A stretch of 64,000 nucleotides of DNA from an uncultured Planctomycetia bacterium (GCA_964352425.1 CAYGRZ010000004.1:2647-66646), one strand, 5' to 3'. Shown: positions 5,599-47,300, counted from the first letter of the stretch. Numbers and translations: made by a program. The notes: generated from the letters alone by a model not told the origin.

Positions 5599-5611
5599 CC
5601 GCCCCGCCCCC

Positions 5612-19105: not shown

Positions 19106-19127
19106 GGCAAGGCTTCCTCTACATAAA

Positions 19128-19162: not shown

Positions 19163-19176
19163 TGCGATACCGGTGC

Positions 19177-19800: not shown

Positions 19801-20015
19801 AACCTCCTCCTTTCTTTTTCTTTTTAAACCCTTCGACGCATCCCTGAGCTTAACTCCGGGGTATTTGCTCAGGGTTTATACTGAGCCGTGTCGAAGTATA
19901 AGTCTTTCACCACAGAGTATACTACAGGGCCCATTAAAAACAGGTTAGAAGAATATTATAATTCTCTAATGTGGGGGGCGCCTTCAACCATATTTTTGGG
20001 ACAGTGCCTGACGTG
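19801..20015 (-). promoter_or_regulatory. 215-nt promoter/operator region upstream of the CBM-GH144-TPR-GH94 gene string. It contains an inverted repeat GCTCAG-N8-CTGAGC and three GTATA/TATAC half-sites spaced ~20 bp apart, making it a candidate response-regulator binding site.
   Basis: Direct reading. It lies immediately downstream of the histidine-kinase gene and upstream of 19177..19800. Confidence 0.35.
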
Positions 20016-21488: not shown

Positions 21489-21512
21489 GCGAGGTGCTTA
21501 TGCCCTTTTCCT

Positions 21513-22181: not shown

Positions 22182-22183
22182 TG

Positions 22184-23509: not shown

Positions 23510-23538
23510 CCCGTATGATCCTTTCCTTTATGCCGATG

Positions 23539-25017: not shown

Positions 25018-25088
25018 CGGGTCTTCCCCCTTATCGGTTAGATACCAGTATAGTAATATTATGTTCTAATAACATACCTGCATTATCG

Positions 25089-26366: not shown

Positions 26367-27031
26367 GTCTTGTACTTCGCCAGGACGGCGTCTATCTCCT
26401 TTATCGCCTGCCTCATCGCGTCGGCGTCCTGGCCCTTCACCTGGCCCAGACATGCGCCCATCTTTGATTCGAGCGCCGCGGTAGCCGCTTTTATCCTGCC
26501 AAAATCGCTCTGGAGCGAATCGACCATCGACTCCAGCGCGCCGGCCGTGTCCTTCATCTCGTCCGATTTCCGCAGGCGGAAACTGACGCGAAGGTCGCCG
26601 CCCTGTATGGCAGCGGCCGAGCGCTCTATCCGGTACATGGGGCCGGCGATCTTATGCGAGAAGAATATGCCGGCGATGAAGATGAGGACGAAGAGTATTA
26701 TTATCTTGGGAAGGAGCGACCGGTTGACCGAATGGAGCGCGTCCTTGATCGCCGCGCGTTCCCGCTCGCTCAGGAGCTCCGCCTCCCTGAATATCCGCTC
26801 GAGGCGGTAGTCGCCCTTCTGGTACCTGGCCTGCTCGTAGTCGGCAATGCGACGCGCGGTCTCGAGGTTCTGGGAGACCTTGAACTTCGAGAAATTCTCG
26901 ATGATCGAACCCCACATGCCCAGGTACAGGCCCAGGAAGCTTGCGGCCATCACGACCACGAGCATTCCCACGATCATGAAGGTATATTTGAGCTGGAACT
27001 CTTTCTTGATGAGATAATTCCTGCGCTTCAT
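26363..27031 (-). CDS. Small membrane protein with two TM helices and a HAMP-like domain but no output domain.
   Basis: TM1 and TM2 flank an ~80-aa periplasmic segment. It carries a HAMP-like amphipathic helix pair (HKIAGPMYRIERSAAAIQGGDLRVSF...DEMKDTAGALESMVDSLQ). ATGA overlap (TGA at 26363-5, ATG at 26364-6) couples it to the GH144-like gene. Confidence 0.5.
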   Translation of the reverse strand: MKRRNYLIKKEFQLKYTFMIVGMLVVVMAASFLGLYLGMWGSIIENFSKFKVSQNLETARRIADYEQARYQKGDYRLERIFREAELLSERERAAIKDALHSVNRSLLPKIIILFVLIFIAGIFFSHKIAGPMYRIERSAAAIQGGDLRVSFRLRKSDEMKDTAGALESMVDSLQSDFGRIKAATAALESKMGACLGQVKGQDADAMRQAIKEIDAVLAKYKT

Positions 27032-27146: not shown

Positions 27147-30100
27147 TTACATGGACCGCAGCGCGGCGAGCTCGGCCTCGTATTTCGCGTGGGCGTCGTT
27201 CAGATTGGCCGGCGTGATGGAAGCAAGCCCCTCGAGCAGCATCTTTACCAGGTCGTCCTTCGTGAACATCTCACCGTTGCTATTCCGCCCTGCCCGGTTC
27301 AGCGCCATAAGGATCTTATCCGGATCCCGGTTGAACCCGATATTGAGCAATATGTTATAGAGGGCGGTCGGCGACATCGGCTTCTCGACCTTTATGATTG
27401 CACTCATGGGCCCGTCGAGCACATTCTTCCTCTTTTCGTCGCTCTTCGCCTTCATCGCATCGTTCACTCTCTTGATGATGGGCTTAAGCCTCGTCTCGAT
27501 TGCCGAGAACGTGTCATTCCCTGTCGCGGCGACGATCGCGAGCTTCTTGCCCGACTTCTCCGCGTCTTTGATAATTTCATTGATCTGGTCTTCGGTATCC
27601 TGGTCGAGAAGATTCGTGCCCTTTCCCCTGAACTCCGTGACCGAGCCGCCGAGGTATTTATTGATGACGACACCGACCTTCTGGACGACCTGCTGGGCAG
27701 CGGGATCGATCGCCGTATCATAGAGGAGTATGATTTTGGTATTGTCGGCGATCGACTTATCGAACCACATCGGCCCGATCGTATTACGGAGAGCGGCCGC
27801 GTCGTCGTCCGCTTCCTTCCGGAGCGCGGCCAGGCGGCCCGCTTCCGCAGGCGTCCGGGCAGGCGGTTCCGTCGAAGCGCCTATACCGATACCCGACAGT
27901 TCCCCGGGAGCCGGAAGCGCCGGTACCGAGGGCTGCGGAGTCTGGCCTGCTTCCTCATCATACGCGGGTTCTGCCGTTTCAGGCTTTACCTCTTCGGGCG
28001 TTTGGGCCTCGAGTCCCTTAAGCCTCGCTATCTCCTTATCGAGCGGGGCGACATTGACCGCGCCCTCCTGGCGCAGGCGTTCGGTGACCTCTTCAGTGAT
28101 GCTGACGAGATCCGCCGGCGTCCTGCCCTCGAATATCGTGGTGAGCTTTTCGCTCGTATTGGACCAGCGCACGAGCGCGGTCCTGCCGTCCTTGAGCTGT
28201 ATCTTGAAGCCTGAAACGGTCACAAATCCATCGTCTTTGGGCTGTATCGTATAATCGTTCTCTTTTTTCGCGTCGCTATAGGCCTTAAGGTCGTTCTTGA
28301 ACCGCTCCTTCATCCACGCGCCGATCTTTTTCGCCGTGGCTATTTTGATAGCATTCGGTATATCGGCCGTCACCTCGCGGCTTGAATACGCGGGCGGGAA
28401 CTTATCGAAAAGCTCCGCAAGCTCGTAGCGCTCCTTGCCGGGCTGAAGCTTGAGCGCAGGCGCCTCATAACGGCTTATCGTCTCGCGTATGTTCATGAGC
28501 GTCACGAAGCCGGAAATGGCGCAGTCGCATACCCTCGACGGATAAGCCTTTGATATGTGGAAGAAGTTGTGGCCCGACGCCTCCGCCGTGAAGTACGTGC
28601 GTTTCAGATTGTCAAAATTCTTCATGAACGCCGCATCGTTCCTGAGTTCCGGCTTACCTGCCACGAACTTTTCGAGCTCGGCGATCCGGTTCTGCATAAA
28701 ACCGAGCTGCGGCGGATAACCCGTCGTGATGAAGTACCCTTCGATGATATTCCTGTCCGTTATGCCTGCCCCGGCCTGCAGCTGGGCGTTGATAGTGTTG
28801 ATGAGGTTTAAGAGCTTCGAGTTTGCCCTGACATCGCAGACGATCCTGATGGGCTCGGCACCCGTCTGCACAAGCCGCATCATGACCTCCTGATTAGACG
28901 GGTTTATAAGGAAGCGCTGGTAATACGGCAGCGTCATCTCGAAGGCCGGGATAGCGCGGCCGGTCTCGTCGATGGCCGATATCCTGTCCGCGTCGCCGTC
29001 GAACACCGCGCCGAAGGCGCGCGGGGTGATCGGGCTGACAGGGTTCGCGTTAATGAGCTTCACCAGCCTCTGCGTCGGCTCAAGGGCTTCCGGAAGCGAC
29101 GGGTCCCATATGCCGCGCCCCATATTGCCGTCGGGAGCCATGTTCAGCATGACGGCTATCCTGCGCGCTCCGCCGTCCCACTCTTTCTTTATTGCCGCAA
29201 TAAGATCGGGCTCTTTCGTCTTGTCCATGTCGATGATCTTGAAACCTCTCTTTTCCAATAGCGCCGTGATGATAGGCCCCGCGGCGCCGGCCCTCGGATC
29301 GATGACCACTATCTCGTCCTTGAGGGTGGCGGGAAGCGTCTCGTTCAGCATATTCACGACGTACTGTTCTATACCGCCCGTCTGGGTTACAGAACCGGCC
29401 GGCACATCGGTACGGACGACCGACCTCTGCTTATACAGGTCTGCGAGCTTCTCCGCATAAAGGGGCTCGAGGACCTTGTTGCCGAGATCGACCTTTATCT
29501 TGAAACCGTTCTTCTCCTTAGGGCCGTGGCTGCCCGAAACCTGGACCATGAACTTGTAGCCGCCGCTGTTCTCGGTCGCCATAAGGTTGTGCGCGCCTGT
29601 CGTGAGGAGGTCCGGTGCATATTCGACATTAACGCCCACCGATGAGATGCCGAGCGCCATGCAATACCTTGATATAGGCGTGTGAAGACGTATGTCGCCG
29701 GTAAGGAGCGCCTTGTCGCCCGGTTTCGCATGATAGGTGCCGAGGAGCTTTCCGACAAGGTACATGTTGGCCGGAGTAAGGTTGGCCTCGATGGTCTTGC
29801 CCATTACTTTGATAGGCTGGGCATTACCCCTGACGTCATACCCATTGCCGAAGCCGAATATGTCCTCCGGCAGCTTCGCGGTGGTTTCACTCAGGTTAGA
29901 TTCGAAATATTTGATGAGGTCCTGTTTCGGCATCGCGACTATCGTCTTGTATGCCTGCGGCAACCCGTCTATAGCGAGCTTGAAATTCGCCTCTAATTCT
30001 GACATTCCGTCTCTCATCAGGAGTGCCTTTCTTACATCATACGTGGACCATTTCGCCTCGATCTGCGCTTCGGATAATTTTCGATTTTCAATATGCGCCT

Positions 30101-33100
30101 TCTCATGCCTGAGCGCTTGAACTATTTTACCCACGCCATCGGGTAAAGACAAGAGATATAATAGGTCCTCCTCGTCCAGATAGGCGACGCGCCTGCCGAT
30201 GCCGGGATGGAATACCATGTCCGTCGCAACCTCACGTTTTTCAAGTTCTTTCGTAAGCCCTTTCACGATAACAACGCCGATGTTGATCGCCGGCAGTTCG
30301 GCCATGAGTTTGCTCAAGTTCCTTTCCTGAATCTCGCTGAGCTGCTGCGTAGGCGCGGAGAAGGGGATATCTATCTCACCCGGCCCGGAAAGGTCGGGCT
30401 GTTTCGCCAGGTAAAGGGTATAGACACTGTCTCTTGCGCGGAACCGCGCGCCGAGGGCCGCGTTCGCGCTTCTTTCATCTTCGTTTATTGTGCCGGCCGT
30501 AAGGCCCCGCGTGCCATGCTCGGCTTCCGTCAGGGCGCCGCCGGCCCCGCGTATCGCGCCGACGGCGCCGGAGGCGATAAGTTCGCTCTGCGGCGCCCAA
30601 CTGCCGAAATACTTTTCCAGCATCGAATAGTCGCCCCGGCTCGCAGCATCTAAATCCATAAGATTCTTTCTCCTGCGCTCATCGGTACGCTTATAGTTTA
30701 TCCTCTTTTGGGCCTGCGAGAACGTGAATCCGCCCAGGCCGGGGTTGGGAAGGCTGAAGAATCCCCCCGGCACATTCTTGACCTTGCTCCACACCAATTC
30801 GGGATCGAGCAAGATATCTGAATGTTCATCGCGGAGGGCATTATACACCACTTCCGCTATGTTATCTTTCGCCGTATCGCTGAGCGCGGACAGATGGAGC
30901 GGGAGCGCTTTGACACCGTCTTTCCTGACTTCATTGGGTATCCCCGCACCATTCGCCAAATACCATCCGAGCGTATCATTGATATTGGGATAGACATCCA
31001 ACAATACTGCCCACCTGCCCATATCGCTCAGATAGTCATTGATCATCGCCTTTATCCCTTTGTCAAATTTAAAAGGCAGGAAGATGGAGCTTCTTGAGAT
31101 CATGACATTGTACCCTCCGCCCGGGGTACCGATGCGGACCGTATTGACATTTTCATCACTGCGCACATTGATGCTCGTCGTGCTCACTTCAGGGAAGAAG
31201 TTGGATATCCTTATATACCCCCGCTTATAGGCGCCCCTGCTGAATGTCACCCTGTCCCAGCGGAAAGCGGCATCCAACACATGCGTCCTGGGCGGCACTC
31301 TCCATACCTTTCCCTTCGGGACGTAGATGGCAACGTTGGACATCACGATCCGGTCAGAGTCTTCCGGTATCTCTATGCTTCCGCCCCCTATTACGCGAAC
31401 GTTGTCTATAAGGTATACCGCATTCCTATTCTTCACTATCAGGTTCTTGCCGACCTCGAGGTTCGTATTGATGAGGTTCTGGTTGGATTCTTTCGGGATC
31501 TGCATACTCATCCGGCCTTCCGGATTAAAAGCGATATACTCGAATAATTGATGGACGGGCGTCAGGTGGCCCGTATCCTGCCAGATATGGCCTTCGCCGA
31601 AATCGAAGCAATACAGCCTCGTCCTGTCTTCTTTCTCAATGTCAAACAAGTTGTCAAACACCTTCTTCAGCTCACGCCAGTCATCCAGATCGATCTTCCC
31701 CTTTTCGCCGGCGATCTCAACGGTAGGCACCATCCCTTCCCACGTCTTCATATCACAGAACCTCGACTGGTAGGCCACGGTCATGTAGCTTACAGGAAGG
31801 GCATCCAGGCCGCAGTAATCTAAGTTGTACCTGGCAAGGGTCTTGCTATTTCTCCTAGAAAATTCCTTCGTTACCTTGACCGCGAATTCTTTGTGAAGGA
31901 TCTCGCCGAATGGGTTCTTATAAAGAGAACCCTTGTCTTCATTCAAATGCGCGATCTGGATGATCTTGAGGTCATCCTTGCACTTCTCCCAGAAACCGCT
32001 CATTTCATAGGCCCTGCGATGGCCCTTCGGATATGCGGTGTATATGCCGAGCTCCTGCAGGTTCTCCGCCTTGATGCGTTGCCTGATCTTCGCCAGCCCC
32101 TCGGAGTTAAGTACGTCCGAAAGCTTTTTCCTCAATGCCTCGTTTGCCATAATTGTATTCCACGCTTCTTTGAGATCACTCTTTCCTGAGATCTCCTGAA
32201 CCGCCTGATCCAGCATCTGCAGCTCTGTCGCTGTATCGATGAGCTGAACACGGGAACCTGAAGTGAGGACGGCGAACTTACCCGCTATCGCCGGATCCTG
32301 CAGAAGTTCCGGAAGATTTGACTTGCCGAGCCACGTGTAATTATCCGACGCGGACCATATCAGCACTTGATCCCGCAATTCTTTGGGCATCATCTTGAGC
32401 ATGGTGAGGTCGACTATGAGGTTAAGCATCCTGGCATCGAGCCCCCTGACAAAGGTCCAGAGGCCTGAATGGAGTCTCCCCAGGGTCTCATTCCCTGCGC
32501 GTGTCTTAAGACCGCCGTCCGTGATGACAACAACGATCTCATTGAGCATCTGCTTATAGAATGCCGCCCACTCATCGTCCGTCAATGAGGGAACCTTCTT
32601 CATCAGGAAATCCTCATACCTGGCGATACCCATCTTCTCCAAGGCGGCTTTATTAAGTTCAAAATACATGCGCAACATATTATTTGTGAACGCGGGGAAG
32701 TCGTGCTTGCGTTCTTCACTGTCCTCAACGGCGAGAACCGGCCGTATTCTGCCTTTCGATATTCTCAGAAGTTCGGCATCTGCCCTGGCATAGAGGTCGG
32801 GGGATTCTTCGTTCATCTGCTTAATATTGGTAAGCGAGTAGGCTTCTACCGTCCCCTCGTAGATCTGGTTCAATGTCGCGTAGACTTCCGCTATGAACTG
32901 ACCAATGTTCTCCACCTTGATCTGCGGGCTGTCCTTGACCGCGTCCCAACCAAGCCGTTTCTGGCCTGCCCTATCGGGTTCCGCTAGATCAGGCATACTG
33001 ACGCCACCCGCTGCTATGTCCCATTTGCCGTTGTTCTTATACGCGACAACTGATGGATTTCCTCTATTACGCATCATGAAGCCGTTCACCCTCTCCCACT

Positions 33101-35117
33101 CGGCCCAGTCAACTTGTGCTCCGCCAGAGAAATATTCGTCCGCCGGCTGCACTATCCCGATCTCCGGCGCCTGAGCAGCTAACGCGTACGTTTCGTTGAA
33201 AGCCCGCTTGAACGGGCTCGAGGACATGATAGCGTCGATGCGAGTCTTGCGCACCTCCGGCTCCACGTTGAGCGTGGCAGCCAGATTTTCGCACGCGACC
33301 TTGTACGCGTTAGACATGAAGTCCCTGTCGTGCGGGATATGTTGCTCGCTGGCATACTTGATCTTCTTCTGCAGCCATAGTTTCACCTGCAGGTAGACAG
33401 CTTCCTCTATAAACCTGTCCATCCTCCCTTTGAGGTAGGGCCCATAAACCTGTTCGAAGCCTTCGGGGTCCGCTTGCTCGAACGCGACGCCGTATGTCGC
33501 CGGCAGCGGCGCGAGCATCCCCTGCTTCGTATCCTGCGGGGCGCCGACGAGGATCTCCTCGAACGGCGTGCGCTGGTTGGTCAGTATCTGGATATAGTTG
33601 GTCGGGACGTCCTTGGTGATCGACGGGCAGACGACGATATATGAGACATCCTGTTTTTCCAGGAGCTTCGCGATGCCTTCCGAGTGGAACCCTCCGGTGA
33701 CGAGCACCGCTATTTTCTGGCCGGCCTTCTCCATACCGTTCAACGTATTTTCGACGAGCGCCTTGTCGCGCTTGATCGCGATATAGTAGAACTCTTCCAG
33801 CTTCGAAACGGCATCCGCGACGGTATCGCTCGGCTCATCGAGTTCGTAGGCCAGGCCGTACTGGATGATCTTGTCCTTTATAAAGGAGCCGAATGCCTCA
33901 TGGGTAAACTCCTCCTTGTGGGTCTTGTAATATTCGAAATCGTCATTGAGGAGCTTTATGCTGACGAGGCCCAGCAGGGTATCTATGTGGCGGGAAAGCT
34001 TCTCGAGGGTGCGCTGGTCGTCATTCTGGAAGAGCTTCTCCTTGATGGCCGTCTCCAGTTTTTTGATCTCCTTGAAGAGCTCTTCGTTCTCTATCTTTGA
34101 ATAGACGCTGTTGTAGATGATATAGTTGTAGAGGTTCGGGTAATCCTTCATCAGGTCGATACCGTTCCTGGTGGCGAGGTTCCTTACGTATACGTAGTAT
34201 TCGGCGGACGACACCTTGCCGACCTTGAACGCGATAGACTGGTTGACGAGTTCCGTGAGGACATCCTTGGTTATACGTTTCGACAGGTCATCGATGAGGG
34301 CGCTGCGCTCCTTGTCGGTCACGTCAAAATCGATCTTCTTCTCGTAGACAAGGACATTGATGAGCTTGAAGAGGTTATCGTACTCGCGCAGGTTTATCCT
34401 GTACTTCTCGGCCTCTGCCTGCAGAAAGCGGATATAGTCGTTGAACGGCAGCTTCTTGGATTCATATTCCGCGGCTTTCGCGTCCATCGCCCTGAGGTCT
34501 TCATTATAGATATAGCCTTTGAGCGTATTGAGGAGCGACTTGATCTGGTTAAAATATTTTTCGGTCTGTTCTTTGAGAGGATAGCTGGAGGTGAACGCGT
34601 TCAGGTTCTCGATGTAATATTCGCGCGTTTCGGCGCCGAAAAGCTTGATTGGAAGGTCAGTGGTGATCGAAAGGAATTCGGGGCCGGTGATCTCGCCCTT
34701 CTTCATGAAGTAGCTGGCGACCTCCTTGCGGACCTCGGCATCGGGGAATGACTTGAACCACGACGTGTCGATGAGCCCGTCCGCACCCTCAACCGATACA
34801 AAGCTCAAATTGTCGTTCTTTATCAGCGTTTCGATGATCTTCGCGATATTTGACTGTGCCTCGAAATTGCAATGGGCGTCCTGGATATGGACTATGAGCA
34901 TGCCGCTCTTTCCGGTGAACTTGGACTTGACGAGGCCGCAATCCCTCGGAATGATGATCTTTTCCGGATCGGTAACACCCTCTTTGGAGGCAGCCGTCTC
35001 GCTCTCAGTCCCTGCCGGGACCGCGAACGCTATGCTCGAAAGGACAAATGACTGCACGATCACGACGCTGATAATCTTCAATAATACTTTACGCGTGCGC
35101 ATTGATTCGATCACCAT
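27147..35117 (-). CDS. Giant secreted multidomain protein (2656 aa) with an embedded alpha-D-phosphohexomutase (phosphoglucomutase/phosphomannomutase) domain and two HExxH-type motifs. The rest is of unknown function.
   Basis: Uninterrupted 7971-nt ORF with an AGGGG SD 5 nt upstream and N-terminal signal peptide MRTRKVLLKIISVVIVQSFVLSSIAFA. The PGM hallmarks appear in the correct order: the phosphoserine loop SGSHGPKEKNGFKIKV (cf. TASHNPKEDNGFK), the metal loop FDGDADRISAIDETG, and the sugar loop TAEASGHNFF (cf. GEESGH). Confidence 0.8.
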   Translation of the reverse strand: MVIESMRTRKVLLKIISVVIVQSFVLSSIAFAVPAGTESETAASKEGVTDPEKIIIPRDCGLVKSKFTGKSGMLIVHIQDAHCNFEAQSNIAKIIETLIKNDNLSFVSVEGADGLIDTSWFKSFPDAEVRKEVASYFMKKGEITGPEFLSITTDLPIKLFGAETREYYIENLNAFTSSYPLKEQTEKYFNQIKSLLNTLKGYIYNEDLRAMDAKAAEYESKKLPFNDYIRFLQAEAEKYRINLREYDNLFKLINVLVYEKKIDFDVTDKERSALIDDLSKRITKDVLTELVNQSIAFKVGKVSSAEYYVYVRNLATRNGIDLMKDYPNLYNYIIYNSVYSKIENEELFKEIKKLETAIKEKLFQNDDQRTLEKLSRHIDTLLGLVSIKLLNDDFEYYKTHKEEFTHEAFGSFIKDKIIQYGLAYELDEPSDTVADAVSKLEEFYYIAIKRDKALVENTLNGMEKAGQKIAVLVTGGFHSEGIAKLLEKQDVSYIVVCPSITKDVPTNYIQILTNQRTPFEEILVGAPQDTKQGMLAPLPATYGVAFEQADPEGFEQVYGPYLKGRMDRFIEEAVYLQVKLWLQKKIKYASEQHIPHDRDFMSNAYKVACENLAATLNVEPEVRKTRIDAIMSSSPFKRAFNETYALAAQAPEIGIVQPADEYFSGGAQVDWAEWERVNGFMMRNRGNPSVVAYKNNGKWDIAAGGVSMPDLAEPDRAGQKRLGWDAVKDSPQIKVENIGQFIAEVYATLNQIYEGTVEAYSLTNIKQMNEESPDLYARADAELLRISKGRIRPVLAVEDSEERKHDFPAFTNNMLRMYFELNKAALEKMGIARYEDFLMKKVPSLTDDEWAAFYKQMLNEIVVVITDGGLKTRAGNETLGRLHSGLWTFVRGLDARMLNLIVDLTMLKMMPKELRDQVLIWSASDNYTWLGKSNLPELLQDPAIAGKFAVLTSGSRVQLIDTATELQMLDQAVQEISGKSDLKEAWNTIMANEALRKKLSDVLNSEGLAKIRQRIKAENLQELGIYTAYPKGHRRAYEMSGFWEKCKDDLKIIQIAHLNEDKGSLYKNPFGEILHKEFAVKVTKEFSRRNSKTLARYNLDYCGLDALPVSYMTVAYQSRFCDMKTWEGMVPTVEIAGEKGKIDLDDWRELKKVFDNLFDIEKEDRTRLYCFDFGEGHIWQDTGHLTPVHQLFEYIAFNPEGRMSMQIPKESNQNLINTNLEVGKNLIVKNRNAVYLIDNVRVIGGGSIEIPEDSDRIVMSNVAIYVPKGKVWRVPPRTHVLDAAFRWDRVTFSRGAYKRGYIRISNFFPEVSTTSINVRSDENVNTVRIGTPGGGYNVMISRSSIFLPFKFDKGIKAMINDYLSDMGRWAVLLDVYPNINDTLGWYLANGAGIPNEVRKDGVKALPLHLSALSDTAKDNIAEVVYNALRDEHSDILLDPELVWSKVKNVPGGFFSLPNPGLGGFTFSQAQKRINYKRTDERRRKNLMDLDAASRGDYSMLEKYFGSWAPQSELIASGAVGAIRGAGGALTEAEHGTRGLTAGTINEDERSANAALGARFRARDSVYTLYLAKQPDLSGPGEIDIPFSAPTQQLSEIQERNLSKLMAELPAINIGVVIVKGLTKELEKREVATDMVFHPGIGRRVAYLDEEDLLYLLSLPDGVGKIVQALRHEKAHIENRKLSEAQIEAKWSTYDVRKALLMRDGMSELEANFKLAIDGLPQAYKTIVAMPKQDLIKYFESNLSETTAKLPEDIFGFGNGYDVRGNAQPIKVMGKTIEANLTPANMYLVGKLLGTYHAKPGDKALLTGDIRLHTPISRYCMALGISSVGVNVEYAPDLLTTGAHNLMATENSGGYKFMVQVSGSHGPKEKNGFKIKVDLGNKVLEPLYAEKLADLYKQRSVVRTDVPAGSVTQTGGIEQYVVNMLNETLPATLKDEIVVIDPRAGAAGPIITALLEKRGFKIIDMDKTKEPDLIAAIKKEWDGGARRIAVMLNMAPDGNMGRGIWDPSLPEALEPTQRLVKLINANPVSPITPRAFGAVFDGDADRISAIDETGRAIPAFEMTLPYYQRFLINPSNQEVMMRLVQTGAEPIRIVCDVRANSKLLNLINTINAQLQAGAGITDRNIIEGYFITTGYPPQLGFMQNRIAELEKFVAGKPELRNDAAFMKNFDNLKRTYFTAEASGHNFFHISKAYPSRVCDCAISGFVTLMNIRETISRYEAPALKLQPGKERYELAELFDKFPPAYSSREVTADIPNAIKIATAKKIGAWMKERFKNDLKAYSDAKKENDYTIQPKDDGFVTVSGFKIQLKDGRTALVRWSNTSEKLTTIFEGRTPADLVSITEEVTERLRQEGAVNVAPLDKEIARLKGLEAQTPEEVKPETAEPAYDEEAGQTPQPSVPALPAPGELSGIGIGASTEPPARTPAEAGRLAALRKEADDDAAALRNTIGPMWFDKSIADNTKIILLYDTAIDPAAQQVVQKVGVVINKYLGGSVTEFRGKGTNLLDQDTEDQINEIIKDAEKSGKKLAIVAATGNDTFSAIETRLKPIIKRVNDAMKAKSDEKRKNVLDGPMSAIIKVEKPMSPTALYNILLNIGFNRDPDKILMALNRAGRNSNGEMFTKDDLVKMLLEGLASITPANLNDAHAKYEAELAALRSM
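28098..29780 (-). other. Phosphoglucomutase/phosphomannomutase-like four-domain module (residues ~1780-2340) inside the 2656-aa protein.
   Basis: The Ser loop at residues 1861-1866 is encoded around nt 29520-29537 and the metal loop FDGDADR at nt 28983-29003. Confidence 0.7.
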
Positions 35118-35356: not shown

Positions 35357-38300
35357 TTATGCCGAGCTACGGATCAAGGCTATGCCGTCCCAGTATGCCC
35401 TGAGCTCCGTTCCGTAGTTGAGCGGCAGTATCGGCGGCATGAAGTTATATATATCGCCATTCTTGGTGACGCCCGGAGGCAGCTGGCCTTCCGCGACTGC
35501 ACCCGTTACCATCAGGAAGAGCGCCTCGTACGAATTGATCGCCGGCACGACCTTCACGCCGTTCATCTCGATCTCTTCGGCGACGAGCACCTTTTCTCCG
35601 GCGGACGTGGGCTTTCCAAGTTCTGAGGCCTCTGCAGTGATACCGATATTGCCCATACTCTTCTCGTCCAGGCCTGCGGCATCTACTACATCCGCCCTGA
35701 TGTCGGCGTATGACCGGTCCTTCTTATTGATGAGTTTGATATCATTGACATTGCCCGTGTAACCGGATGCCGCGATAAAGGAGCGCGCTGCTTCCTCTGT
35801 CTTATATATATCTCCATAGATGAAGCAATTGACGACCTCTCCTCCGGCCTGTTTGCCTAGCGCTTCGGCCCTGTTCATGCCCTTGCCGAAGCGTATGTTG
35901 GACATGGCCATCTTCTCTGTCGTCGCCATGGCGAATTTCTTAACCGCGCTCCGGGCCATCAAGCTCTTGAGGGAGGAGGCGTCCGGAAGCTCCATAGGCC
36001 TGTATGCCTTCGTCTTCGTAGCGAGCTCGTCCCTCCGCTTCTCGACGATCGACGTTACTGTGTCGTGTAACCGCTGCCGCAGGGCAGGGTCCTTGGCTGC
36101 TGCCATGCTCGCTGCATCCAGGAGATTGTCCCAGTCCATCTTTTCTGTTCCCGGCAGCATGGCCTTGATCGCCTCGGCGATCTCCTGCCTCGTCGCATCA
36201 TCGATACCGGCCATCGCGAATATCACGTCATAGGCGCGGGCCAGCCTGATCGAGGCGATGTCCTGCTTGAATTCCGCGGATGTTATCTGGCTTACGGGCA
36301 TCGTACCGTCAAGGAGTATGCGGGCGGGGCTTCCTTCTGAAGCCATCTTCCTGAGCTCTTCCTCGCCCGTAACACTGACGACCCTGGTCCCGGTGCCGTA
36401 CGCGCGCCCAACCGCCTCCACCGTTTCGGCGGACGCGCCAGCCAGGCCGATGATGAATGCCGCAGCGCTGACTTTCGCCGGCTTCGGGAGCGGGAGGCCT
36501 TCGGCGGGTTCTTTCATCTCAACTGTCTCTTCCAACCGGTGTATGAGATCGCCGACATATCCTTCGCCCGATGGCTCCCGCGCAGATTCCATCATAAGCG
36601 CCGTTTTGACCGCCTGGTCGGTGATGTACCTTTCATTCACCGTCACGGGCGCAGGGCGCATCCTGTCAAGCTGTTTCCATATGACGTATGCCGCGGCGGC
36701 CGCGGCACCGATCGCAAGCACCATCCACGGCGGGAGCGCCAGATAGACGAATATCCCGAGAAGAATGAACGAACCGGCTTCCACGAGCCTCGGCGTGGTC
36801 GTCGTGGTGGTGGACTGGCCCATCCTCGCGGTGAACTCGGCAATAAATTCCGGCTCATTCTCTATCCTCTCGACGACGACCTGCGTCTTATTTCTGACGA
36901 TCTTATTGATCTCATCGTCCGTTTTCGCCTGCCAGTTTTCGAGCAGGTCGCCGCAGGCAGCGGCAGAGCACTGCCCCGCAACCGTCTTCAGCTCGGGTAT
37001 CATGCCGTATATGACGCCCGGTATCATGAATATATTATATTTTTTCTGCAGGTACAGGCTGAACATGAGCGTTTTATGATACCGCGCCGCGTCGCCGCAG
37101 ATCGTGACCGGCAACCCCCGCTGCGCTGCCTCTTTCACAACGCCTTCGATGATCCCGAGTATCTGTTTGTCATAATCATGGGCGGTGATCCCGCTCCTGT
37201 CCTTCTCCTTGACGCTCGCCGTCATGTCGTTCGAGCCGATACTCAGGAACCGTATCGGCACGAGCCCGTTATCGAGGATCAGCATGAGATTCTCGAACGT
37301 CAGGTTGCCGGCCTTGTCCATAACGAGGTCCCGGTGCTCGACCATGATGCCGATGGGCATCTCGTCCAGCAGCCTGACCACCTCCGCTTTCTCTTTGCGG
37401 GCACTTCTGAACATCTTGTGGTGCTGCGCGGCGAGTTCGTCCATGAACTGCTCGGTCTTTATCTCTTTCAGGAGGTCGCTGATGAAGACGATATCATCCA
37501 TCGTCTTCACCATCGGGAACATCATCCTCAGGTTGTGATAGTCGGATAACATCTGGGCCCGCAGGATCGCGGTTATCTGCGTCTTCAGCGCCTCGCGGCC
37601 TGTCTTCGTCCTGTAGTAATCGAAGCTGTACGGCTTGCCATTCACGCCGGCCAGGCGCTCCGTATCGGGCAGGGCGGGGCATGCTTTATCATCCTGCTTG
37701 TCGAACGTCCTTATCGTGACGGTCTTGTTGGCGAGATTCGCCAGGCCCATATACAGCCGCTCCTGATGAGCAGCGTCAGGCGCCTGGCTTCTGCCGTACA
37801 TAAATTCCGTCCTCGCCAGCGCATTGCCGTTCGCCCCGCTGCTATATGCCGTTCTCAGCGCGCCGAGAGCCCCTTCATCCTCGATGCCGAATTCACCCTT
37901 CTCGAGGTTGTAACCGACGTTGATGTTGGCATAGACCGGGGTTTCGACGCCGTCGAGGGTCCTGACCACCTCATCCGGTTCTTTACTCTGTTTGGAGAGG
38001 TAGTAATCTTTGAGCGCCTTCGCCCTTGCTACCTTGACCGCCATCGCGGCGCCCTGATCGCTCGTCGCGGGTCCGGCATAGAAGTAGGCCTCGAAACCGG
38101 CCTCCGACACGTAGAAAGAGCAGGACGCGTTCGTGTGGGCGAGCTTTGCCAGGACGATCTTCGGCGGGCCCAGCAGCAGCGTCGCGCCCCGCGCCGTAGC
38201 GACGAGGGCGGCATGCTGCGAGGTCGAGCCGCCGGACGAGACGAATGCCTTGACTTTGTATTTCTCCGTGAGCGCGCGCAGGATAAGCTCGTCTTCGATG

Positions 38301-41300
38301 AGGCCCGCGGACACGACGACGATCTCCCTCTTCTCCTGCCTCGCCCTTTCCGCCACTTCGTCGATATCCTCGAGCCTGACCTCTTCGATATCGAGCTTGA
38401 GGCATATATTCTTCACGATCTCCTCGGCAAGCCGGCCCTCGTCGCTCCGCTTGCCTTGCGCATCCACAGGATAATTTGCTTCGAGCCATTGCCACAGGGC
38501 GAAATGCGCGGTATGGCGGGCCGTCTTTATCGTTTCGCTGACACCGCGGAACATGCGCTCGGCGACCTGGGCGGCGGTTGTAGAGGGCGACATCTCCGCC
38601 ATAGCCGCCGTGTGGCAGGCAAAATACTTGCCCTGTTCCGCCTCGACCCCGTCCTCGCTTATCACGTATCCTTCGTCAACGGCTTTTATGACGCGGATGA
38701 TCCTGCTCTTCGTGTCAGGCCTGGCGAACACAGGCACCTTCAGGAGCATTTCACAGGCTTTCCTTACCTGGGCCGCTGCGCTGTCACTGCCGTTCTCGAC
38801 CCTGACATTCTCCAGGATGTGGTCATACAGGGCGATCATCGCCTTGAACACTTCCGCCATCTCTCCCGTCGCCGTCTTGAGATCTTTCTCAACCCGGTAG
38901 ACCTGCGGACGTATCCTGCTTATCAGGTGCGTCATCTCGTCGGCGGGTGATGTCCTGATGTGTTTGACCCGGTCGCCGACCTTGTACCCCGACTTCAGGC
39001 CATCGAGCGTGAGGCTGTCTTCAACATAGTTCAATATGATGCCGTTCCATACGCCGCCGGGCACACCGTTCGTCGCGCACTTATGTATGCCGCGCAGTTT
39101 TTCGTAACAGAGCCCGTACGCCTTATCGGACAGGGCCTTGGCGCCTTCAAGATTAACGGCGTTGGCCCTGCCAAGCAGCTCGGCCGCCGTCTCGGCGGAA
39201 AGCTCTTCCGCTACCGCAGGCGATTTCTGGAGCTGGAGCAATTCGATATACACGCCGTCGTAGATAAGGTCGAGCGTCCTGGCCCTTTCTATCCCGCGGT
39301 CGCCGACCATTGTTACAAATTCCTTATCGGCGCCGATCCTGTTCGGCGTGGCGATCAGGACCTGCGTCACCGGCACGTCGTGGGACGTGACCCTCTTCAG
39401 GTCATTCAGCGCAACGTGGGTAGCCGTCTGGCCGGCTTCTTTCGTCTTGCGTGCCAGCAGATACAGCTGCCACAGCTCGAATATCTCGTTATACAACTTG
39501 CTCTTGTTCTTGGGATCGACGACGTGGTTTTCCGTGAACATCTCGGTCAGGCATTTCTGCACAAAATCGACAGGCATGGGCTCTAAGCCGCGCAGCTCAT
39601 CGGGCAGCGTCTCTTTGAATACTTCATAGACATCGCGCTCTTCCCTTGCCCTGTCAAGCATCGCCTTCTCAATGCCTTCGCGGCCTGTCGCTTCGCCGAC
39701 AACGTCTTCGCCGACGGCCCTTGAGATGTAAGGAGCTGTCGCGCCTTCGGGAGGAGCCCCGACGGCGCCTTCCTGTCCGGCGGTGACCATGCCGAGCATC
39801 ATGCCTGCCGCCGCTATATTCATGGAGCTGATCTCGTGCCCAAAGGCTATGGAGGCAAGCGTACCGATGCCGGCAAGGAGCATCATCTTCGTCGTAGCAC
39901 TGAGGCTCTTGGACCTCTTTGTGAACCTTTCCACCACGCGGCTAACCCTGTCTTTAAGAGGCGCCGCTGCTGTAACGGCCTCTGCCGGAATAAACGACTG
40001 TTCGTTGATATCCACACCGACATCGAGATCGTTATTAAGCTTTTCGAGCAGGAGGTTGACATTATTCTCGTACACATTGCAGGACGGGCATTTATGTATG
40101 TCGAAATCTTTTCTGGCGCGCGTCGTCCCTACCAATATGTCATGGAGCCGCTTGCCGCCCGTGCTCAGATCACCTATCTGGAAGATCCTGTCTTCGAATG
40201 TCGGCTGGGCAGTGAGACAGCACCTGTATACTTCGCCCCACGGGTTGATGACGATCTTGGTCAGGGTGGCCCAGCAATCCCTGGGCATCTTGACCGGCTT
40301 GGCCGATTTTACAAGGCCTCCGGCCAATACGTTGAAACGCTCGGCTATATCTATCCTCATATTCCCGAACTCCCCGAGCCTCTGCATCTTCCTTATCTTG
40401 AATATCATCTTGAGGAGCCCTTTCATCTCCTCCTCGCTGAAGTCTCCGATCTTTCCTATGATGTCGGCCCTTATATCGAAGAAGTCCGCTCCCATGAGGT
40501 GTGCGAGCTTGATGGCCATGTAAAGCTCTTTATAATTCTGGGACATCGCGAGGAAGCTCACGCCGATGCTGACGTCGCTCTTAGTCTTCCTCTTTATCTC
40601 CACCATACCTCTTATATTGCTCTTTATCCACTCGACATCCGAGCCGGGCCTGCGGTAGACCGCCTCATAGGTTTCCGGCGTGGCCGCGTTGAAGCTGACT
40701 CGGATCTGTTTTGCGTGAGTGACGACCTCCTGAGCCCTGGCGGTATCAAGGAACGTACCTTCGGTATATATGTAGACATTCAGCCCTTTCCCTGCGGCAT
40801 ACTGCACGACATCTACACTATCCTTATTTGTAAACGGCTCTCTGCCGCCGGAGAAATAGATGTCTCTCACGCCGTTTGCTGCAAAATCGTCTATCAGGGC
40901 GAAGAGCCTCTCCTTATCAATGGCGGGCTTGCCCTGCCTGTCGGCATAGTCCCGGCCCTGGCTATAGCAGAAGATGCAATTGCTCGGACACTTCAGGCCA
41001 AGATGCAGCTCCACGATCTTCGGATATACCGGCTCACCATTAAGGATCTTCCTGACGTAATCCTCATCCTCCATGAGCAGCCGCGCTATCTTGATAAAGG
41101 TGGCGTTCGGCGACTCCATGGCGAGCATCTCCTGCATGAACTGGCTCGACTTCACTATCTTATACAGCTCCTTCAGGTCGCCTATATCGAGCCCTGTCTT
41201 TTTCATCACCTCATGGGAGGAGCTATACGGATAGAGCAACAACTCCCGCAATAGCCGCAGGAGCGGGATCCTCAGCCTGTCTCTCACCTCTATCCCATCC

Positions 41301-44300
41301 GCCTTCAATGCCTCCATGGCAAGTTCAAGTGCCTTATTATCCTGCGTTATGTCGACACGGGCATCCTTCAGCCGGCGTGCGAGGTTGCCGACAGGCTCAT
41401 ATAGCGAATGTATGTAGTCTTCGAGGTAAGTGGATGACCTGCTGATGCCGTAATCCCGGGCATACTGCAGCACCTTGTGGAATTTGAAATCATCCAGGTC
41501 ATCGCTGTTTTTGAGAGCACTGAGTATATTGTCCTGTGTCTTTTGCGGGAATGCGAGGAACAGCTCTACTTCTTTGGAGGTGATATACATCTCTTCTTCC
41601 ATGGGAGAAAGAGGCGGCGCGTTCGTCGGCATGCTGCGGAGCCTGGCGTGCATGAGCTCATGGATAAATTCCATGAATAAGAGCTCGTTATTCGCCGCCA
41701 ATGAGTCGACATCGAGCGTTATACTATCAGCACCTTCCGTGAAATGCATGAGGCGGTCGTTCCCCTCGACGATCCGGATAGATTTTTCTTTCATGAGCGC
41801 CTTTCTCTTTATGGCTGCGGCATCTCCGCTTCCCATTTCCAGGAGCTCCTCTACCTTTTCCCTGGCGGATTCGCTTAAATCATGGAGCGTGATAACTCTC
41901 TGCAGCAATGCTTCCAGAGCCGCCTTCATGCCGTTATCTATACCTTTGTAATTCTCGACCTGTCCATCGATGATGGTGGCCCAGGCCAGGTCGTGCCTGC
42001 CGCCGAGGACACCTGCCTTCATCGCTATGGGCGACGGCGCGAGTGCAGCGGGGGCCGCCGGAGCCGCAGCCGGCGCAGGAAGATCTAACAATCGCTCTAA
42101 GCCTGTCGCGCCGCTCTTTGTTACGACCGCCTGCCTTTTCGCGATATCCAAGTCGGGCCAGTATTTTTCAAAAAACCGCCGCGGGCCGGCAGCTTCCAGG
42201 ACCTCCATTATTCTGTTGATACGCTCCAGTTTTACGGCATCGACCTGTCCGGCCAGAAGGCCGCCCTTCTGCCGTTTAACTATTTCATTCAGTACCCGCA
42301 CCCTGGCGAATTCATTCAGCTGATCCCATGCGCCCTTCCATTCCGTCTCGGTCCACGCCTTTATTTTCTTATGCTGCAGTTCTATTTCGGAGAGATCCAT
42401 CATCTTCATCGCATCAGCGACCTCGTTGCGCAGATCCTGCTTATCGGTACCGGCCAGGTCCAGTTCTGTGAGATAAAGTATATAGAGCCTTAACGCGTGC
42501 CTGTCCTTATTGTATATCGTCTCATTTTTTGTAAGCTCTTTTATCTTTTGTATGGCCGCGCCGTCCGACAGCGCCGCTTTCCCCATCACCGTACCCGTCT
42601 CTTTCATCCAGGCGTTCAGTTCGTGTATCATGAACTGGAAAGGCTGGGTCCTGTGCTCCCTGGTCCCGCCGTACTTCGCCGTATACCAGGCGGCATATGG
42701 CCCGAATACCCATGACAGGATAAATATCGGGAAGCCCTTGAAGACAAAAGCCGGGTCAAATATTCTGAAAAGGAAATAGTCGCTCGGGAAGAATACCCCC
42801 ACAAGGACAAGGACAAGCAGCGTGATCCCGGCTATCGGCGCCCATTTAAACTCTTTATACGCCTGCCAGACAGTCATTCCCTTTTCCAGTCTGGCCTCGA
42901 CTGCTGTAAGCGTATCCCACCTGAATTCTCTTCCTTGTATGACAGCCTTTGTAGATTTTTTAAGATCGAGAGGGCCGTATATCAGGTTCATCATCATGAT
43001 CGAGGTATGCAGGAAGGTCTCGACAGCTAGGCGCTTTGTCGTCAGATAGACCTTATTCACCATGCCAAAAAAGTCTTTGACAAATAAGGCCGGTCCTGAT
43101 GCGGCGCGTGCCATGGCGTGTTGTAACATACCCGCAAGCGTCGCGATCCCGACGTAGATTATAGTATATGCACAGATACCGAAGTTGTGCTTAAGCAGGT
43201 CTTCCGTAAGGTAAGCCGCTGACGGCACACTCCTTAAACATAGCTCGATATACGGCGTGGCGGCCCAGAACATGGCCACCAATCCGGCGGGCATACCGAT
43301 CTTAACCGGTATCTCCGTCCACTTCATGCCGACGCTAATAAGTTTCTTGACCGGATTCCGCAAGATCACGATGAGCAATACTACGACTGCCGCCCAGACC
43401 GCCAATGCCGGTGCCGCTATTATTATCTTCGGCAAGGCGACCAATAACGCCACGGACGCGAGACCGCCCGCTACGTTTGCCCAGGTCTTCAGGCTCCGGG
43501 GGCCTCTTTCGAACGTCTCTCGCAGTATAGGACTGCCTTTCTGGCCTATCAGTATGAGCATCACGATCGCGAAGAGGTCGCGTGCTGTGACCGGATGAGT
43601 TCCGGTAAGGACAGCGGGAATCTGTGTAGCAATCAATCCTAAGACGACGAGCCATATTGTAAAGACCGGAGTGGACAGCATCCCCCGTATTATGCCTGAA
43701 ATGTGGTGTTCCGATTCAAGGTTCACGTTTGCGCTTCCCAGTACCGATTCTCGTATCTGTTTTTTCGCGGCGATCATAGCCTCTATGCCATGGCCCTGAG
43801 CATACGCGAACATGGCTTTTGCCGCGTTCCATTCCCTGCGCAGCGCCTCGACATCGCCCGGCACCCACCGCCTCATCCTTATGATCATTGAGGAGAAACT
43901 GGTCACCGTCTCTTCGAGTATATATATCGGCGCTAAGAGCGTCCCTACAAGATATGCGGTCGCCGTCCACATCGCCTCCCAGAAATCATGGCTTCTGACC
44001 GTCCAGGGAAGGACCTGCTTCTTGATAACATCGTTCAGATACTTTGGACCGTAAAACGTCATCTTGCCGACTGCCGAGCCCTTGCCGAAGATCCAGAAAA
44101 AGACAAGGGAGATATAACTGAGCATGCTCTGCGCCCAGCTCTGCAGCCGTGCGAACAGGGACTTACCGATATTGGGGTATTGTATCTGCGGCTGGTACAT
44201 CCCCCAAAGCTCCTTGCCCAATATGTCATACGCGGCCCTGCTGCCTATCCGCTTGGCCACTCCCGAGATGACCTCATTCTTATTATCTATCTCTATCGGT

Positions 44301-47300
44301 AACTGTATATATATATCCGGTTCCACCTCATTACCCAGCATATCTTTGGCATACACGTATCCGGCGTCTCTCTTCACTAAAATATAGGTCCCGACCCGCG
44401 CTATCCTGTTCTTGCCGTTATCTATCGCCCACCCCTCTTCATCGATATCAAAACCGTCTTTTTGCTGTAAGGTCCTCTCGACAATGAGATCGCCCGTCTT
44501 CTCATCGACCGCGACCTCTCCGGCGCCGAATGTCCCGTTCATATTTATGACAGGATCGCCGGCGTCAACGGCTATCCTGCGTAAATTATTATCTTCATCT
44601 AAAACGAATTCGCCGCTGGCTGCCAGCTCCCCGTCCGTAGTCTTCAGATGAGCATTCCCGTAGCCGTCAAAATAGACATCGTCATATTGCGCGAGGAGCC
44701 TTCGCGTCCTGTAGATGCCGTTGTTGTCCTTGGCGAATGTTCCGTATCTGGCAAGCCGCTGCGATTGTTTCAGGGCCTCCGTCTTCTGGTCCAGTATAAT
44801 GTTATCCTGCACAACGCTCGTGATGCCATCCTTAGCGAGATCCCACCTTCTCAGGGGTTCCTTATCATACCGTGACACGCTGCCATCCATGGGATACTGT
44901 AGAAGTTCTCCGCCTTTTATTACAAACCCGTCTTTTTCATTTGCAAGATAGCCGTCCTCGACCTCTCTCAACCTCAATGCGCTCGTGTCTGCTATTAACA
45001 TTCCGCCTGCGTCCCTGGTGAGCGAATGAGCGCGATCGGCTATAAAGTAAGTGGTCTCCCTGCCGGTCTTGCCGAGCCCAAGCTCAAAGAAGTCGGTTAT
45101 GGCGCCCTCGCGCGCGTATAACTTTGCCTCTTGCTTGGTTATCCCTCCTGCGTACAGGTCGCCTTTCAGGTCTTTCTTCCATGTCCCGTATTTTGCGAGT
45201 ATACGGCCGCTTGCAGTATGTATGGCATCTCCTGTGGCCTTCTCTACGTGCCATGAGCCGGCCAGGGCTTTCAACCCCTCGTCCACGATCAGGTTGCCAT
45301 CCGCATCCGCAGACCACCACCCGACGGGAACGAGGACATCGCCCGTAATTGTAACGGCGTTGCCTGTTTCAGGATCACGCTTCCATTCGCCTTCTTTTGC
45401 CCTTGTCTTTACAAAGGCTCCGCCCCTCTCTGTAATGACGCCGTTGGCGTCCAGCGTATCTATGAATGTCTCCAAGTTCTCCGGAATGATCGGCCTCTGC
45501 CCGTCGAACTCGGCCGCGCGGGTCAGGAGATATTCGCCGCCATATTCGTTTACAGCGGGGGTAATCTTGCCGTCCGCGCCTAATATATATTTCTTATATG
45601 CTACACCTTGATCGATATGCCCTATCTCATCTATCGACGCGAAATATGCCCCTGTCGCGGCATCCAACAGCTTGCCGTCTTTCGTCAATATCAGCGTATG
45701 CCGTATCGCGCCGCTTTTATCCTTCAGATAGATATGCTGGTCATATATAGTGGCGACCCTGTCCGGCAGCTCCTGGCCGTCCTTTCCCTTGGCCCTCTGC
45801 GTACTGTCATTCCTGTCCCTGAGCAGGCCTGACTTGGGAAGCTCGTCATACATATCCTTTGTCGCGATAAGTTTTCCCGTCGCGTCATCATAGATGTCCC
45901 CCTTAAGGAGCCTGTAACGGCGGGCCGGATTATCCGCGTCAATATAGTATACCTCTGACTCGGCGCTGACCTGCCACTCACGGTCATCTATCTTGATCGT
46001 GCGCCTTTCTATAGCATACTCGCCCTTAAGTAGCTCCACCGCAAAGTCTGTTACCAGCTCAAACCCTTCATTCTCTTCATCATATACGGGACTGCGCGTG
46101 TATGTGCCGCGCGGGAACCTCTTCACTTCGGTAGTCTTGCTGGTGTCGCTGTATACGATCGCCTCTCCGGTCACGCCGTCTATGGTATATGTTCCCGGCT
46201 CTGCCAGGATACCCTGCCTGAGAGTGCCGGAGGCGTCTTCCGCTACTGTGATCTTAGGCCTGTCATCATCCAGTCTTGTGACATAGAGATGCGGGTGGGT
46301 CCAGCACTCCAACATCCACTCAAAATCCGACCTGTAAGAGCCGGGCTTCATCATATGCGTCGGATTATACACGTGTTTCTGGAAATTTCTGTGCGCATAG
46401 GTAACCTTGTCGCGGCCCCACAGCCTTCTCGCATTTAATATCTGGGCTATCTCTTCCATTATAAGCCCGGCTTCCTTCAGCGCCGTATCGCTGTGCATCC
46501 ATGCGCCGAGATTATCCTGCTCATCAGGAACAAATTTATTGCCGGCTGAATCCTCATAGAGATATTTCGCCTTGTCCGCGCCGACCCTCTCCATCTTCAC
46601 GCTGTTTATCATGGAATCAAACAATGTTTTCGCGATAAGTTTTACGTCAAGCGGCCCTTCCTGGCGGCCGATGTCATAGATGACGGCCTTATATTTTTTG
46701 GCTATCCTCTGCGTCTTTTCGACAAGTTTATATTTTGGCAGGTCCCACGGCGCTCTTTCCTTAAATAGGCCTACCATGTTGCCTAGGAATAATGCGCCAT
46801 TTGCCACTGTAAGGGTACCGATGGCGACAAATAGCTCTGCCATGCAGTAATTGCAATAGGTATACAGGACCGCTGCCACGGCTATAATGCCGAGCAGGGA
46901 CGTGTCCGCGTTTATGGTGCTTAATGCGTAAATAGCCGTAACTGAGGTGGCGGCCGTGGTTATCGCCAGTTTCGCCAGGCGCGCGAAGAAGGTGTGGGTC
47001 AGCTCTCTCTGATTGCCTCTTCCTGTAATGGCTGTGGCCGCCAATTTCAAGGTATCCCGTCCGAAATCGACCGCGGCGGATATAGTGATATATACCAGGA
47101 TGCCGGACGCAAGCGCCATTAATGTATAATTTAATCCCGGGATCCCCGATATATAAATACACGAGAAGACCGCCAGGGGGACCGCCCACTTTATGACAGG
47201 CCGTATAGGAGGCTTTGTCGCTTTATCGATAAAATAATTCCACCACACCAATACTGGCGCGAGCAGTATGAAGAGCCAGCTTGAATATGTACCCAGCACC

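Follow-up and report, generated by a model that had tools for sequence, protein, structure and literature searches.

A predicted Enzyme I-type phosphotransferase module with its histidine in the canonical register inside an Omnitrophota-type giant protein

What is a phosphoenolpyruvate (PEP)-utilising module doing inside a membrane megaprotein, and would it still transfer phosphoryl groups? The question is raised by a 64,000-nucleotide stretch of DNA from an uncultured Planctomycetia bacterium (GCA_964352425.1, CAYGRZ010000004.1:2647-66646), called the window below and meant at its full length, in which one giant open reading frame (ORF) carries, towards its C-terminal end, motifs of Enzyme I (EI) of the PEP-dependent phosphotransferase system (PTS). 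An earlier reading of the sequence alone (the original prediction) had proposed an EI-like module with a swivel phosphohistidine domain, a PEP-binding TIM barrel and a catalytic histidine shifted by one residue. Judged on sequence comparison and a structural model, the module can be identified as a real but divergent EI homologue whose histidine stands in the canonical register, and it is probably an active EI-type PEP:protein phosphotransferase that would give the giant protein a PTS-like regulatory input.

The relatives of the module proved hard to retrieve. When 5.8 billion proteins were searched through a word index, the module as query returned canonical EI only, at 24–30% identity, and the family alignment as query returned P0068 as the sole family member; the search missed members of its own collection that share 39–46% identity with the query. 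The family was recovered when the last 1,200 residues of the giant were run with HMMER, exhaustively, against 1.84 billion cluster representatives; this yielded 11 large proteins (987–7,326 residues) matching query residues ~6–735 at 39–46% identity over the matched stretches. Further members are one locus in a species-representative genome, a Candidatus Omnitrophota metagenome-assembled genome (MAG) (L001), and three on metagenome contigs (L002–L004). In the aligned module, the 11 representatives are 33–48% and these four loci 35–40% identical to the window protein, and the family hidden Markov model (HMM) delimits a conserved unit of ~700 residues (giant residues ~8320–9032). The span first reported for the module, 36941–38353 (residues 8520–8990), lies inside this unit, which begins ~200 residues upstream of it, at residue 8320. 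All members with a source name are proteins of Candidatus Omnitrophota MAGs, annotated as 'putative PEP-binding protein' by NCBI or as 'PTS system EI component' by JGI. Two relatives hold additional EI-like barrels. P0073 has a second, partial barrel (residues 3013–3288) upstream of its complete module (3827–4530), and P0084 has a more divergent one (residues ~1500–2000; VRTE, LRMID, GIMIE, SIGTNDL, ICGE) in the order EI-like barrel, HPr, two transmembrane segments and C-terminal domain.

Within the module the domain order is that of a full EI: helical N-domain, swivel His domain, linker helix and PEP-binding TIM barrel. All seven motifs from which the module was originally recognised are in frame in the giant ORF, namely GGSTSQHAAL (residues 8560–8569), RTEF (8700), IRTFD (8733), LRMMFPM (8794), IGIMVEH (8853), FLSIGSNDMT (8888) and TICGD (8936), and both of the domains proposed from them are borne out. 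The barrel matches PF02896 (PEP-utilizers_C) at 85 bits (E 7e-24, cut-off 22.8), a profile also matched in 12 of 12 family members, and the swivel domain is aligned by TIGR01417, MAFFT and hhalign and modelled as alpha/beta. An AlphaFold2 (AF2) model built on the family alignment (mean predicted local distance difference test, pLDDT, 80.8; predicted template modelling score, pTM, 0.68) comprises a helical part (model residues 1–208), an alpha/beta swivel domain (214–295), a linker helix (301–326), the barrel (~343–660) and two closing helices. The top Foldseek matches of this model in the PDB are full-length EI structures (2kx9, 2hwg, 2wqd and 2hro; E 3e-18 to 8e-17 over ~640 aligned columns), and the isolated C-terminal PEP-binding domain of EI (EIC; 2bg5/2xz7) superposes on it with a TM-score of 0.82. 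Profile–profile alignment of the family with 48 canonical EI sequences gave a probability of 100% and an E value of 1e-46, with family positions 97–689 collinear with E. coli EI 28–566; the second half of the helical N-domain is thereby collinear with the alpha (HPr-binding) subdomain of EI, from EI residue 28 onwards.

PPDK domains have been reported in Omnitrophota giants, and PPDK_N is among the commonest domains of giant proteins (West-Roberts et al. 2023), which would favour reading the module as an enzyme of the PPDK or PEP-synthase type that interconverts pyruvate and PEP. A swivel domain and a TIM barrel are common to the whole PEP-utiliser superfamily, and Foldseek does find PPDK (E 1e-9) and PEP synthase (1e-7), though well behind EI. 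The ATP-grasp domain PPDK_N (PF01326), however, was found neither in the whole giant (Pfam, E ≤ 0.01) nor in the module and its flanks (E ≤ 10), what precedes the His domain is all-helical and EI-like, and the relatives have fused HPr-like domains. Against PDB sequences the family profile matches EIC at 2.7e-35, full-length EI at 6e-29 to 4e-28 and PEP synthase at 1.5e-7, a preference for EI over PEP synthase of ~28 orders of magnitude, and gives no match to PPDK. Given the missing ATP-grasp domain and the far stronger profile match to EI, we assign the module to the Enzyme I type rather than the 'pyruvate-diphosphate kinase' type, and the PPDK/PEP-synthase reading, which we consider very improbable, was set aside.

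The original prediction had placed the histidine one residue off the GGRTSH position, and a displaced histidine would imply an altered geometry or a new mechanism. Taken by itself, the local string GGSTSQH does read as GG and TS followed by an inserted Q and the H. It resembles GG plus an insertion because the window protein carries an additional Gly at position –6. In three independent alignments, by MAFFT with canonical EI and by hhalign between profiles, on the other hand, the strand before the histidine (KAFV in the window, GFIT in EI), the loop and the helix after it (HAALVATARGA in the window, HTSIMARSLEL in EI) align without a gap, placing His8566 on EI His189. The relatives have C-x-G-S-T-x-(E/Q/D)-H, in which the one Gly, at –5, corresponds to the first Gly of the canonical G-G-x-T-S-H, with its G(–5)G(–4); relative to canonical EI, the loop has Ser for Gly at –4, a variable residue for Thr at –2 and Glu, Gln or Asp for Ser at –1, and the motif common to the 16 family sequences is G-S-T-x-(E/Q/D)-H. 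We judged the geometry of the histidine from the alignment and the secondary structure of the model, in which His8566 opens a helix (model residues 249–256) after a strand (238–241) and a loop, just as helix 6 of EI has His189 at its N-terminal end (PMC8295985). On this comparison the register of the catalytic histidine is taken as canonical and the apparent shift as an artefact of where the motif was anchored; there is hardly any chance that the residue is truly displaced, and the 'shifted' histidine can be removed as a false lead.

Is the active site otherwise complete? For E. coli EI we assumed a sequence and numbering in which each numbered catalytic position carries the residue expected there. 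In EI, R296, R332 and K340 contact the PEP phosphate, E431 and D455 the Mg2+, and N454, R465 and R358 the carboxylate or substrate, and C502 is the proton donor to the pyruvate enolate. The giant has an identical residue at each of the 12 positions tabulated, H189, R296, E298, R332, D335, K340, R358, E431, N454, D455, R465 and C502 of EI corresponding to H8566, R8700, E8702, R8734, D8737, K8742, R8767, E8858, N8894, D8895, R8905 and C8938, respectively. The Arg and Cys residues of the TIM barrel, whose lack would have spoken against a PEP-binding module, are thus present on alignment and, R8767 apart, invariant in 16 of 16 family sequences, and the Cys of TICGD aligns with Cys502. Only 41 of the 743 columns of the 16-sequence family alignment are invariant, and yet 11 of the 12 tabulated catalytic positions, all except the R358 equivalent, are among them (hypergeometric p 4e-15).

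This invariance bears on the possibility of a relic without catalysis, or of a scaffold that binds PEP or pyruvate or is purely structural within a mosaic giant. Such a fate would suit the scores of the His and N-terminal domains, which lie well under the equivalog and Pfam cut-offs, the change of the Thr-Ser before the histidine, the disappearance of the HPr partner from the window's clade and the shuffled, mosaic make-up of giants in general. Invariance of the 11 active-site positions, among them the histidine and the proton-donor Cys, fits catalysis and not a scaffold, and we consider a dead relic distinctly unlikely. Since these positions are invariant though the sequences share only ~33–48% identity, the alignment argues strongly that PEP-dependent catalysis would have been retained.

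In the mechanism that we propose, PEP and Mg2+ would bind in the TIM barrel, His8566 on the swivel domain would be phosphorylated and pyruvate would leave; the swivel domain would then swing to the helical N-domain and the phosphoryl group would be passed to an HPr-type carrier. P0073, P0076, P0079, P0208 (two copies), P0141, L001 and L004 have, immediately behind the module or separated from it by a short spacer, an HPr-like domain of ~85–110 residues whose active-site motif is G-(L/I/M/V)-H-x-R, and in a neighbour-joining tree these HPr-fused members are basal, with the window protein, P0068–P0072, P0074 and P0075 forming a derived clade that lacks HPr. In the basal relatives, then, the carrier would be fused immediately behind the module, and their architecture points to a putative protein phosphorelay inside megaproteins. 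In the window's clade the carrier would have been lost from the polypeptide, and in this case it would not be encoded in the 64 kb; the acceptor of the window's protein would be an HPr-like domain in trans, or an acceptor of another kind. We consider transfer to an HPr-type domain in trans the most economical inference for the window's protein, because the helical N-domain is kept.

The phosphorylated histidine could also serve an acceptor other than HPr, such as a domain of the giant, the neighbouring 2,656-residue protein (for example by priming the active-site Ser of its phosphoglucomutase (PGM)-like domain), or a small molecule or sugar. The window's clade has no fused HPr and still keeps all catalytic residues, no HPr was found in the 64 kb, and a PGM-like domain with SGSHGP and DGDADR is encoded next door. 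Phosphorylation of small molecules by swivel-His enzymes is known from rifampicin phosphotransferase and phenylphosphate synthase. These precedents, however, pair the His domain with dedicated substrate-binding and ATP-grasp domains, neither of which is seen here; the helical N-domain, the putative equivalent of the HPr-binding part of EI, is kept and conserved in the HPr-less clade; and the relatives do not consistently pair the module with the PGM neighbour. A non-HPr acceptor is therefore possible but doubtful in our estimation. Direct phosphorylation of a cargo sugar, as the original prediction had envisaged, is less likely than a protein phosphorelay because basal relatives carry HPr-like domains right after the module.

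The predicted EI-type phosphotransferase would probably serve the giant as a PTS-like sensory or regulatory input that reports PEP/pyruvate status, and would not take part in transporting sugar. The 64-kb window contains no EII component, and Pfam (E ≤ 0.01) finds no EIIA- or EIIB-like domain in the whole giant. PEP is a cytoplasmic metabolite. The module is most likely cytoplasmic and membrane-tethered; we place it on the cytoplasmic side because radical-SAM and SecA-like ATPase domains share its polypeptide. That it sits inside a membrane megaprotein agrees with the four clusters of hydrophobic, transmembrane-like segments that a Kyte–Doolittle scan finds in the giant (residues ~1011–1376, 5426–5709, 6749–7041 and 9042–9078). 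Between the radical-SAM domain and the module (residues ~8005–8045) the segments are weakly hydrophobic and paired. Beyond the module, the hydrophobic hairpin is split by Pro-Pro and has Arg/Lys on both sides in the translation; P0070, P0071 and P0084 have paired transmembrane-like segments at the same position, and P0068 and P0069 have none. This stretch (residues 9036–9078) is probably a membrane hairpin.

Several observations weigh against an active EI-type phosphotransferase that feeds an HPr-type carrier. Of the three Pfam profiles named for checking the module, only PF02896 recognises it; PF00391 reaches 14.7 bits in the giant, below its cut-off of 23.1 (4 of 12 family members attain E ≤ 0.1), and PF05524, the EI N-terminal domain, recognises neither the giant nor any of the 12 members. 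The combination of a canonical G-G-x-T-S-H signature with a PF00391 match above the gathering score is not found in the module, and the near-universal Thr-Ser before the histidine is replaced by x-(E/Q/D) throughout the family. TIGR01417 aligns to the giant over profile positions 151–413 (the His domain and part of the barrel) with 90.9 bits against an equivalog cut-off of 341.7; PRK11177 likewise gives 49.6 bits against a cut-off of 824. The helical N-domain alone is matched to the N-terminal part of EI with an hhalign probability of only 13% (pairwise E 0.002), in the same register as in the full alignment. At the position of R358 the window protein keeps Arg, the relatives have R, K or E and the partial copy of P0073 has Leu; the R361 equivalent (the second Arg of 'GWRAIR') is deleted, and the 11 active-site positions are those that we presumed, from the EI literature, to be the relevant ones. 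EI is active only as a dimer. The cytoplasmic location is read from a crude hydropathy scan, and the neighbour-joining tree is a rough one, drawn without support values. As a check, the original prediction had named a search for HPr-like or EIIA-like segments elsewhere in the giant; HPr HMMs, a regular expression and Pfam found none. With two HPr HMMs (the first built on canonical and fused HPr together, the second on giant-type HPr alone) and the pattern G-x-H-x-R-P, no HPr-like sequence was detected in six frames of the 64 kb, the giant or the 2,656-residue neighbour (best E ~3), and because of this the acceptor step is unsupported for the window's own protein.

Compared with PtsI of E. coli, Thermoanaerobacter tengcongensis and Staphylococcus (2hwg, 2kx9, 2wqd, 2hro, 2bg5 and 2xz7), the module appears to have the same domain order and has the same catalytic His, Arg/Lys phosphate site, Glu/Asp metal site and Cys proton donor, but is only ~20–25% identical. 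In place of the N-terminal beta-hairpin (EI residues 1–27) it has ~95 additional helical residues; it has three insertions, of ~16 residues just before the barrel and of ~20–30 and ~13 residues inside it; its family has G-S-T-x-(E/Q/D)-H where PtsI has the loop G-G-x-T-S-H, and 'F(D/E)YY(R/K/E)T' in place of 'GWRAIR'. Unlike PtsI, it falls under the TIGR01417, PF00391 and PF05524 thresholds and forms part of a membrane protein of 9,517 residues. Multiphosphoryl transfer proteins and EI fusions (EI-HPr-EIIA: P0010, P0031 and P0226; GAF-EI, that is PtsP/EI-Ntr: P0051 and P0224) resemble the relatives of the module in that EI is fused to other domains, HPr among them, within a single polypeptide. 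In these known fusions, however, HPr is N-terminal to or flanks a canonical EI, whereas in the relatives the HPr-like domain is C-terminal, and in the window's own protein HPr is missing altogether; the known fusions are soluble proteins of ~750–950 residues with EIIA, whereas the module's host is a multi-pass membrane giant in which no EIIA was detected. PPDK and PEP synthase (5jvj, 8a8e and 9dae) belong to the same swivel-His and TIM-barrel superfamily and give weaker fold and profile matches; they differ in that the module has no ATP-grasp domain and its N-domain is helical and EI-like. The Omnitrophota entries MDP2929072.1, MFH1552265.1 and MFQ5952261.1 ('putative PEP-binding protein') and the JGI 'PTS system EI component' proteins are members of the module's family (33–48% identity over ~700 residues), under names that are automatic only. 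Fusions of EI with HPr, EIIA or GAF and the labelling of the relatives as PEP-binding or EI-like are thus already known; what is new is an EI homologue in a multi-pass membrane giant, with an altered active-site loop and, in relatives, a C-terminal HPr-like domain. In the literature open to our searches we found no published analysis of the domain set, active-site motif, HPr fusion or an EI/HPr relay in Omnitrophota giants, only the remark on PPDK.

Hardly any of the giant proteins of Omnitrophota is characterised, and the enzyme domains in them have until now been treated as a list of metabolic parts. One recurrent part would now be a complete EI homologue with an intact set of catalytic residues, not a PPDK fragment, and at ~720 residues it is a small, expressible and testable unit. 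More speculatively, and with a low expectation on our part, Omnitrophota giants may carry a built-in, PEP-fuelled EI-to-HPr relay that couples PEP/pyruvate status to the megaprotein; in the window's clade HPr would have been lost, and the EI-like His domain, whose loop is altered to G-S-T-x-(E/Q/D)-H, would phosphorylate a new acceptor. If so, carbon from host or prey would be linked, via PEP/pyruvate status, to megaprotein activity, by a PTS-derived signalling or energising device without an attached sugar permease. With a regulatory input of this kind, PTS-derived signalling would reach further than is known so far, into a phylum whose bacteria are ultra-small and depend on hosts.

The remaining features of the giant fit this class of protein. 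Giants of Omnitrophota have been described as having a divergent SecA DEAD domain, many transmembrane helices and radical-SAM, PGM and ROK modules (West-Roberts et al. 2023; bioRxiv 10.64898/2026.06.07.730766), and the domain repertoire of the window's giant (Table 1) agrees with both preprints on Candidatus Omnitrophota giant proteins. It has the length, the transmembrane clusters and the mosaic of enzyme domains of such giants, gives weak matches to SecA-like ATPases, and all its named relatives are from Omnitrophota; from the relatives we infer that the host protein is an Omnitrophota-type giant. Three segments of the giant (Table 1) are found at quite different positions in P0090, P0086, P0088, P0093 and P0094; because segments recur at other positions and in other orders in other large proteins, the giants can be seen as shuffled mosaics of common modules. 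The module was originally placed at the C-terminal end of the giant; the hydrophobic hairpin and a 375-residue domain come after it. This C-terminal domain was found in 71 clusters, and we dropped it as a candidate partner of the module, since an EI-like module is also present in only 6 of the 25 that have at least 900 residues upstream.

Table 1. Coordinates of the giant ORF, its EI-like module and other features of the 64-kb window (AF2 ranges in model numbering)
Feature	Window position	Residues	Strand	Basis or remark
Giant ORF	35357..63910	9,517 in all	minus	ORF list; ATG to stop, uninterrupted
Complete EI-like module	36815..38953	~8320–9032	minus	Representative search, alignment identities, family HMM, loci L001–L004
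All-helical N-terminal domain	38336..38959	8318–8525	minus	AF2 helices 5–208, pLDDT mostly 75–95
Swivel (mobile) phosphohistidine domain	38075..38320	8531–8612	minus	AF2 alpha/beta 214–295; PF00391; TIGR01417
His8566 codon, equivalent of EI His189 (phosphorylated His)	38213..38215	8566	minus	Ungapped alignment; invariant in 16/16 family sequences
Long linker helix, His domain to TIM barrel	37982..38059	8618–8643	minus	AF2 helix 301–326; hhalign, collinear with EI linker
PEP-binding TIM barrel (EIC-like)	36974..37933	~8660–8979	minus	PF02896, residue table, Foldseek
Two closing C-terminal helices	36806..36964	8983–9035	minus	AF2 helices 681–700 and 703–718; kept in family alignment
Thr-rich linker (TTTTTT), then ~35-residue hydrophobic hairpin	36677..36805	9036–9078	minus	Translation; hydropathy peaks 9042 and 9049
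C-terminal domain, 375 residues	35360..36484	9143–9517	minus	Generic in large Omnitrophota-type proteins
Weak SecA_DEAD / P-loop_SecA	61490–62821	~364–807	minus	Pfam E 0.006 and 2e-4, below cut-offs
Borderline OEP/TolC-like match	53486–54043	~3290–3475	minus	22.3 bits against cut-off 22
Radical_SAM + SPASM	40076–40993	~7640–7945	minus	Pfam
Recurring giant segments	~57914–59344, 41411–42067, 39857–41296	1523–1999, 7282–7500, 7539–8018	minus	Matches in other large proteins
Second large ORF, after the giant	27147..35117	2,656 in all	minus	
PGM/PMM domains I and II in the second ORF	28959–29801	1773–2053	minus	SGSHGP in place of TASHNP; DGDADR metal motif
GH94 protein	8696–14938	2,080 in all	minus	
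Three PF10091 'glycoamylase' (GH144-like) proteins	6633–8699, 16814–19330, 25089–26453		minus	
Solute-binding protein	22184–23509		minus	
Two ABC permeases	4717–6556		minus	
ROK protein	2682–3911		minus	
Histidine kinase + response regulator	20016–22406		minus	

The neighbouring genes had been taken, together with the module, as signs of a sugar-phosphate theme, with a GH94 phosphorylase upstream and a PGM domain in the adjacent giant. Read along the minus strand, the giant gene in fact precedes the GH94 gene, which is downstream and not upstream, and what links these genes to the module is co-location only; the relatives are mosaics in which the module stands in varied contexts, and the co-location of PGM and GH94 is no evidence of a common pathway. 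The 2,656-residue ORF gave no EI-like, HPr-like or C-terminal-domain match, and from its motifs its PGM-like mutase looks potentially active. Downstream of the two large ORFs, the locus at 6633–26453 (minus strand), to which the last six entries of Table 1 belong, is presumably one for beta-1,2-glucan utilisation, as we take it from its domain set and what we assume of the families concerned.

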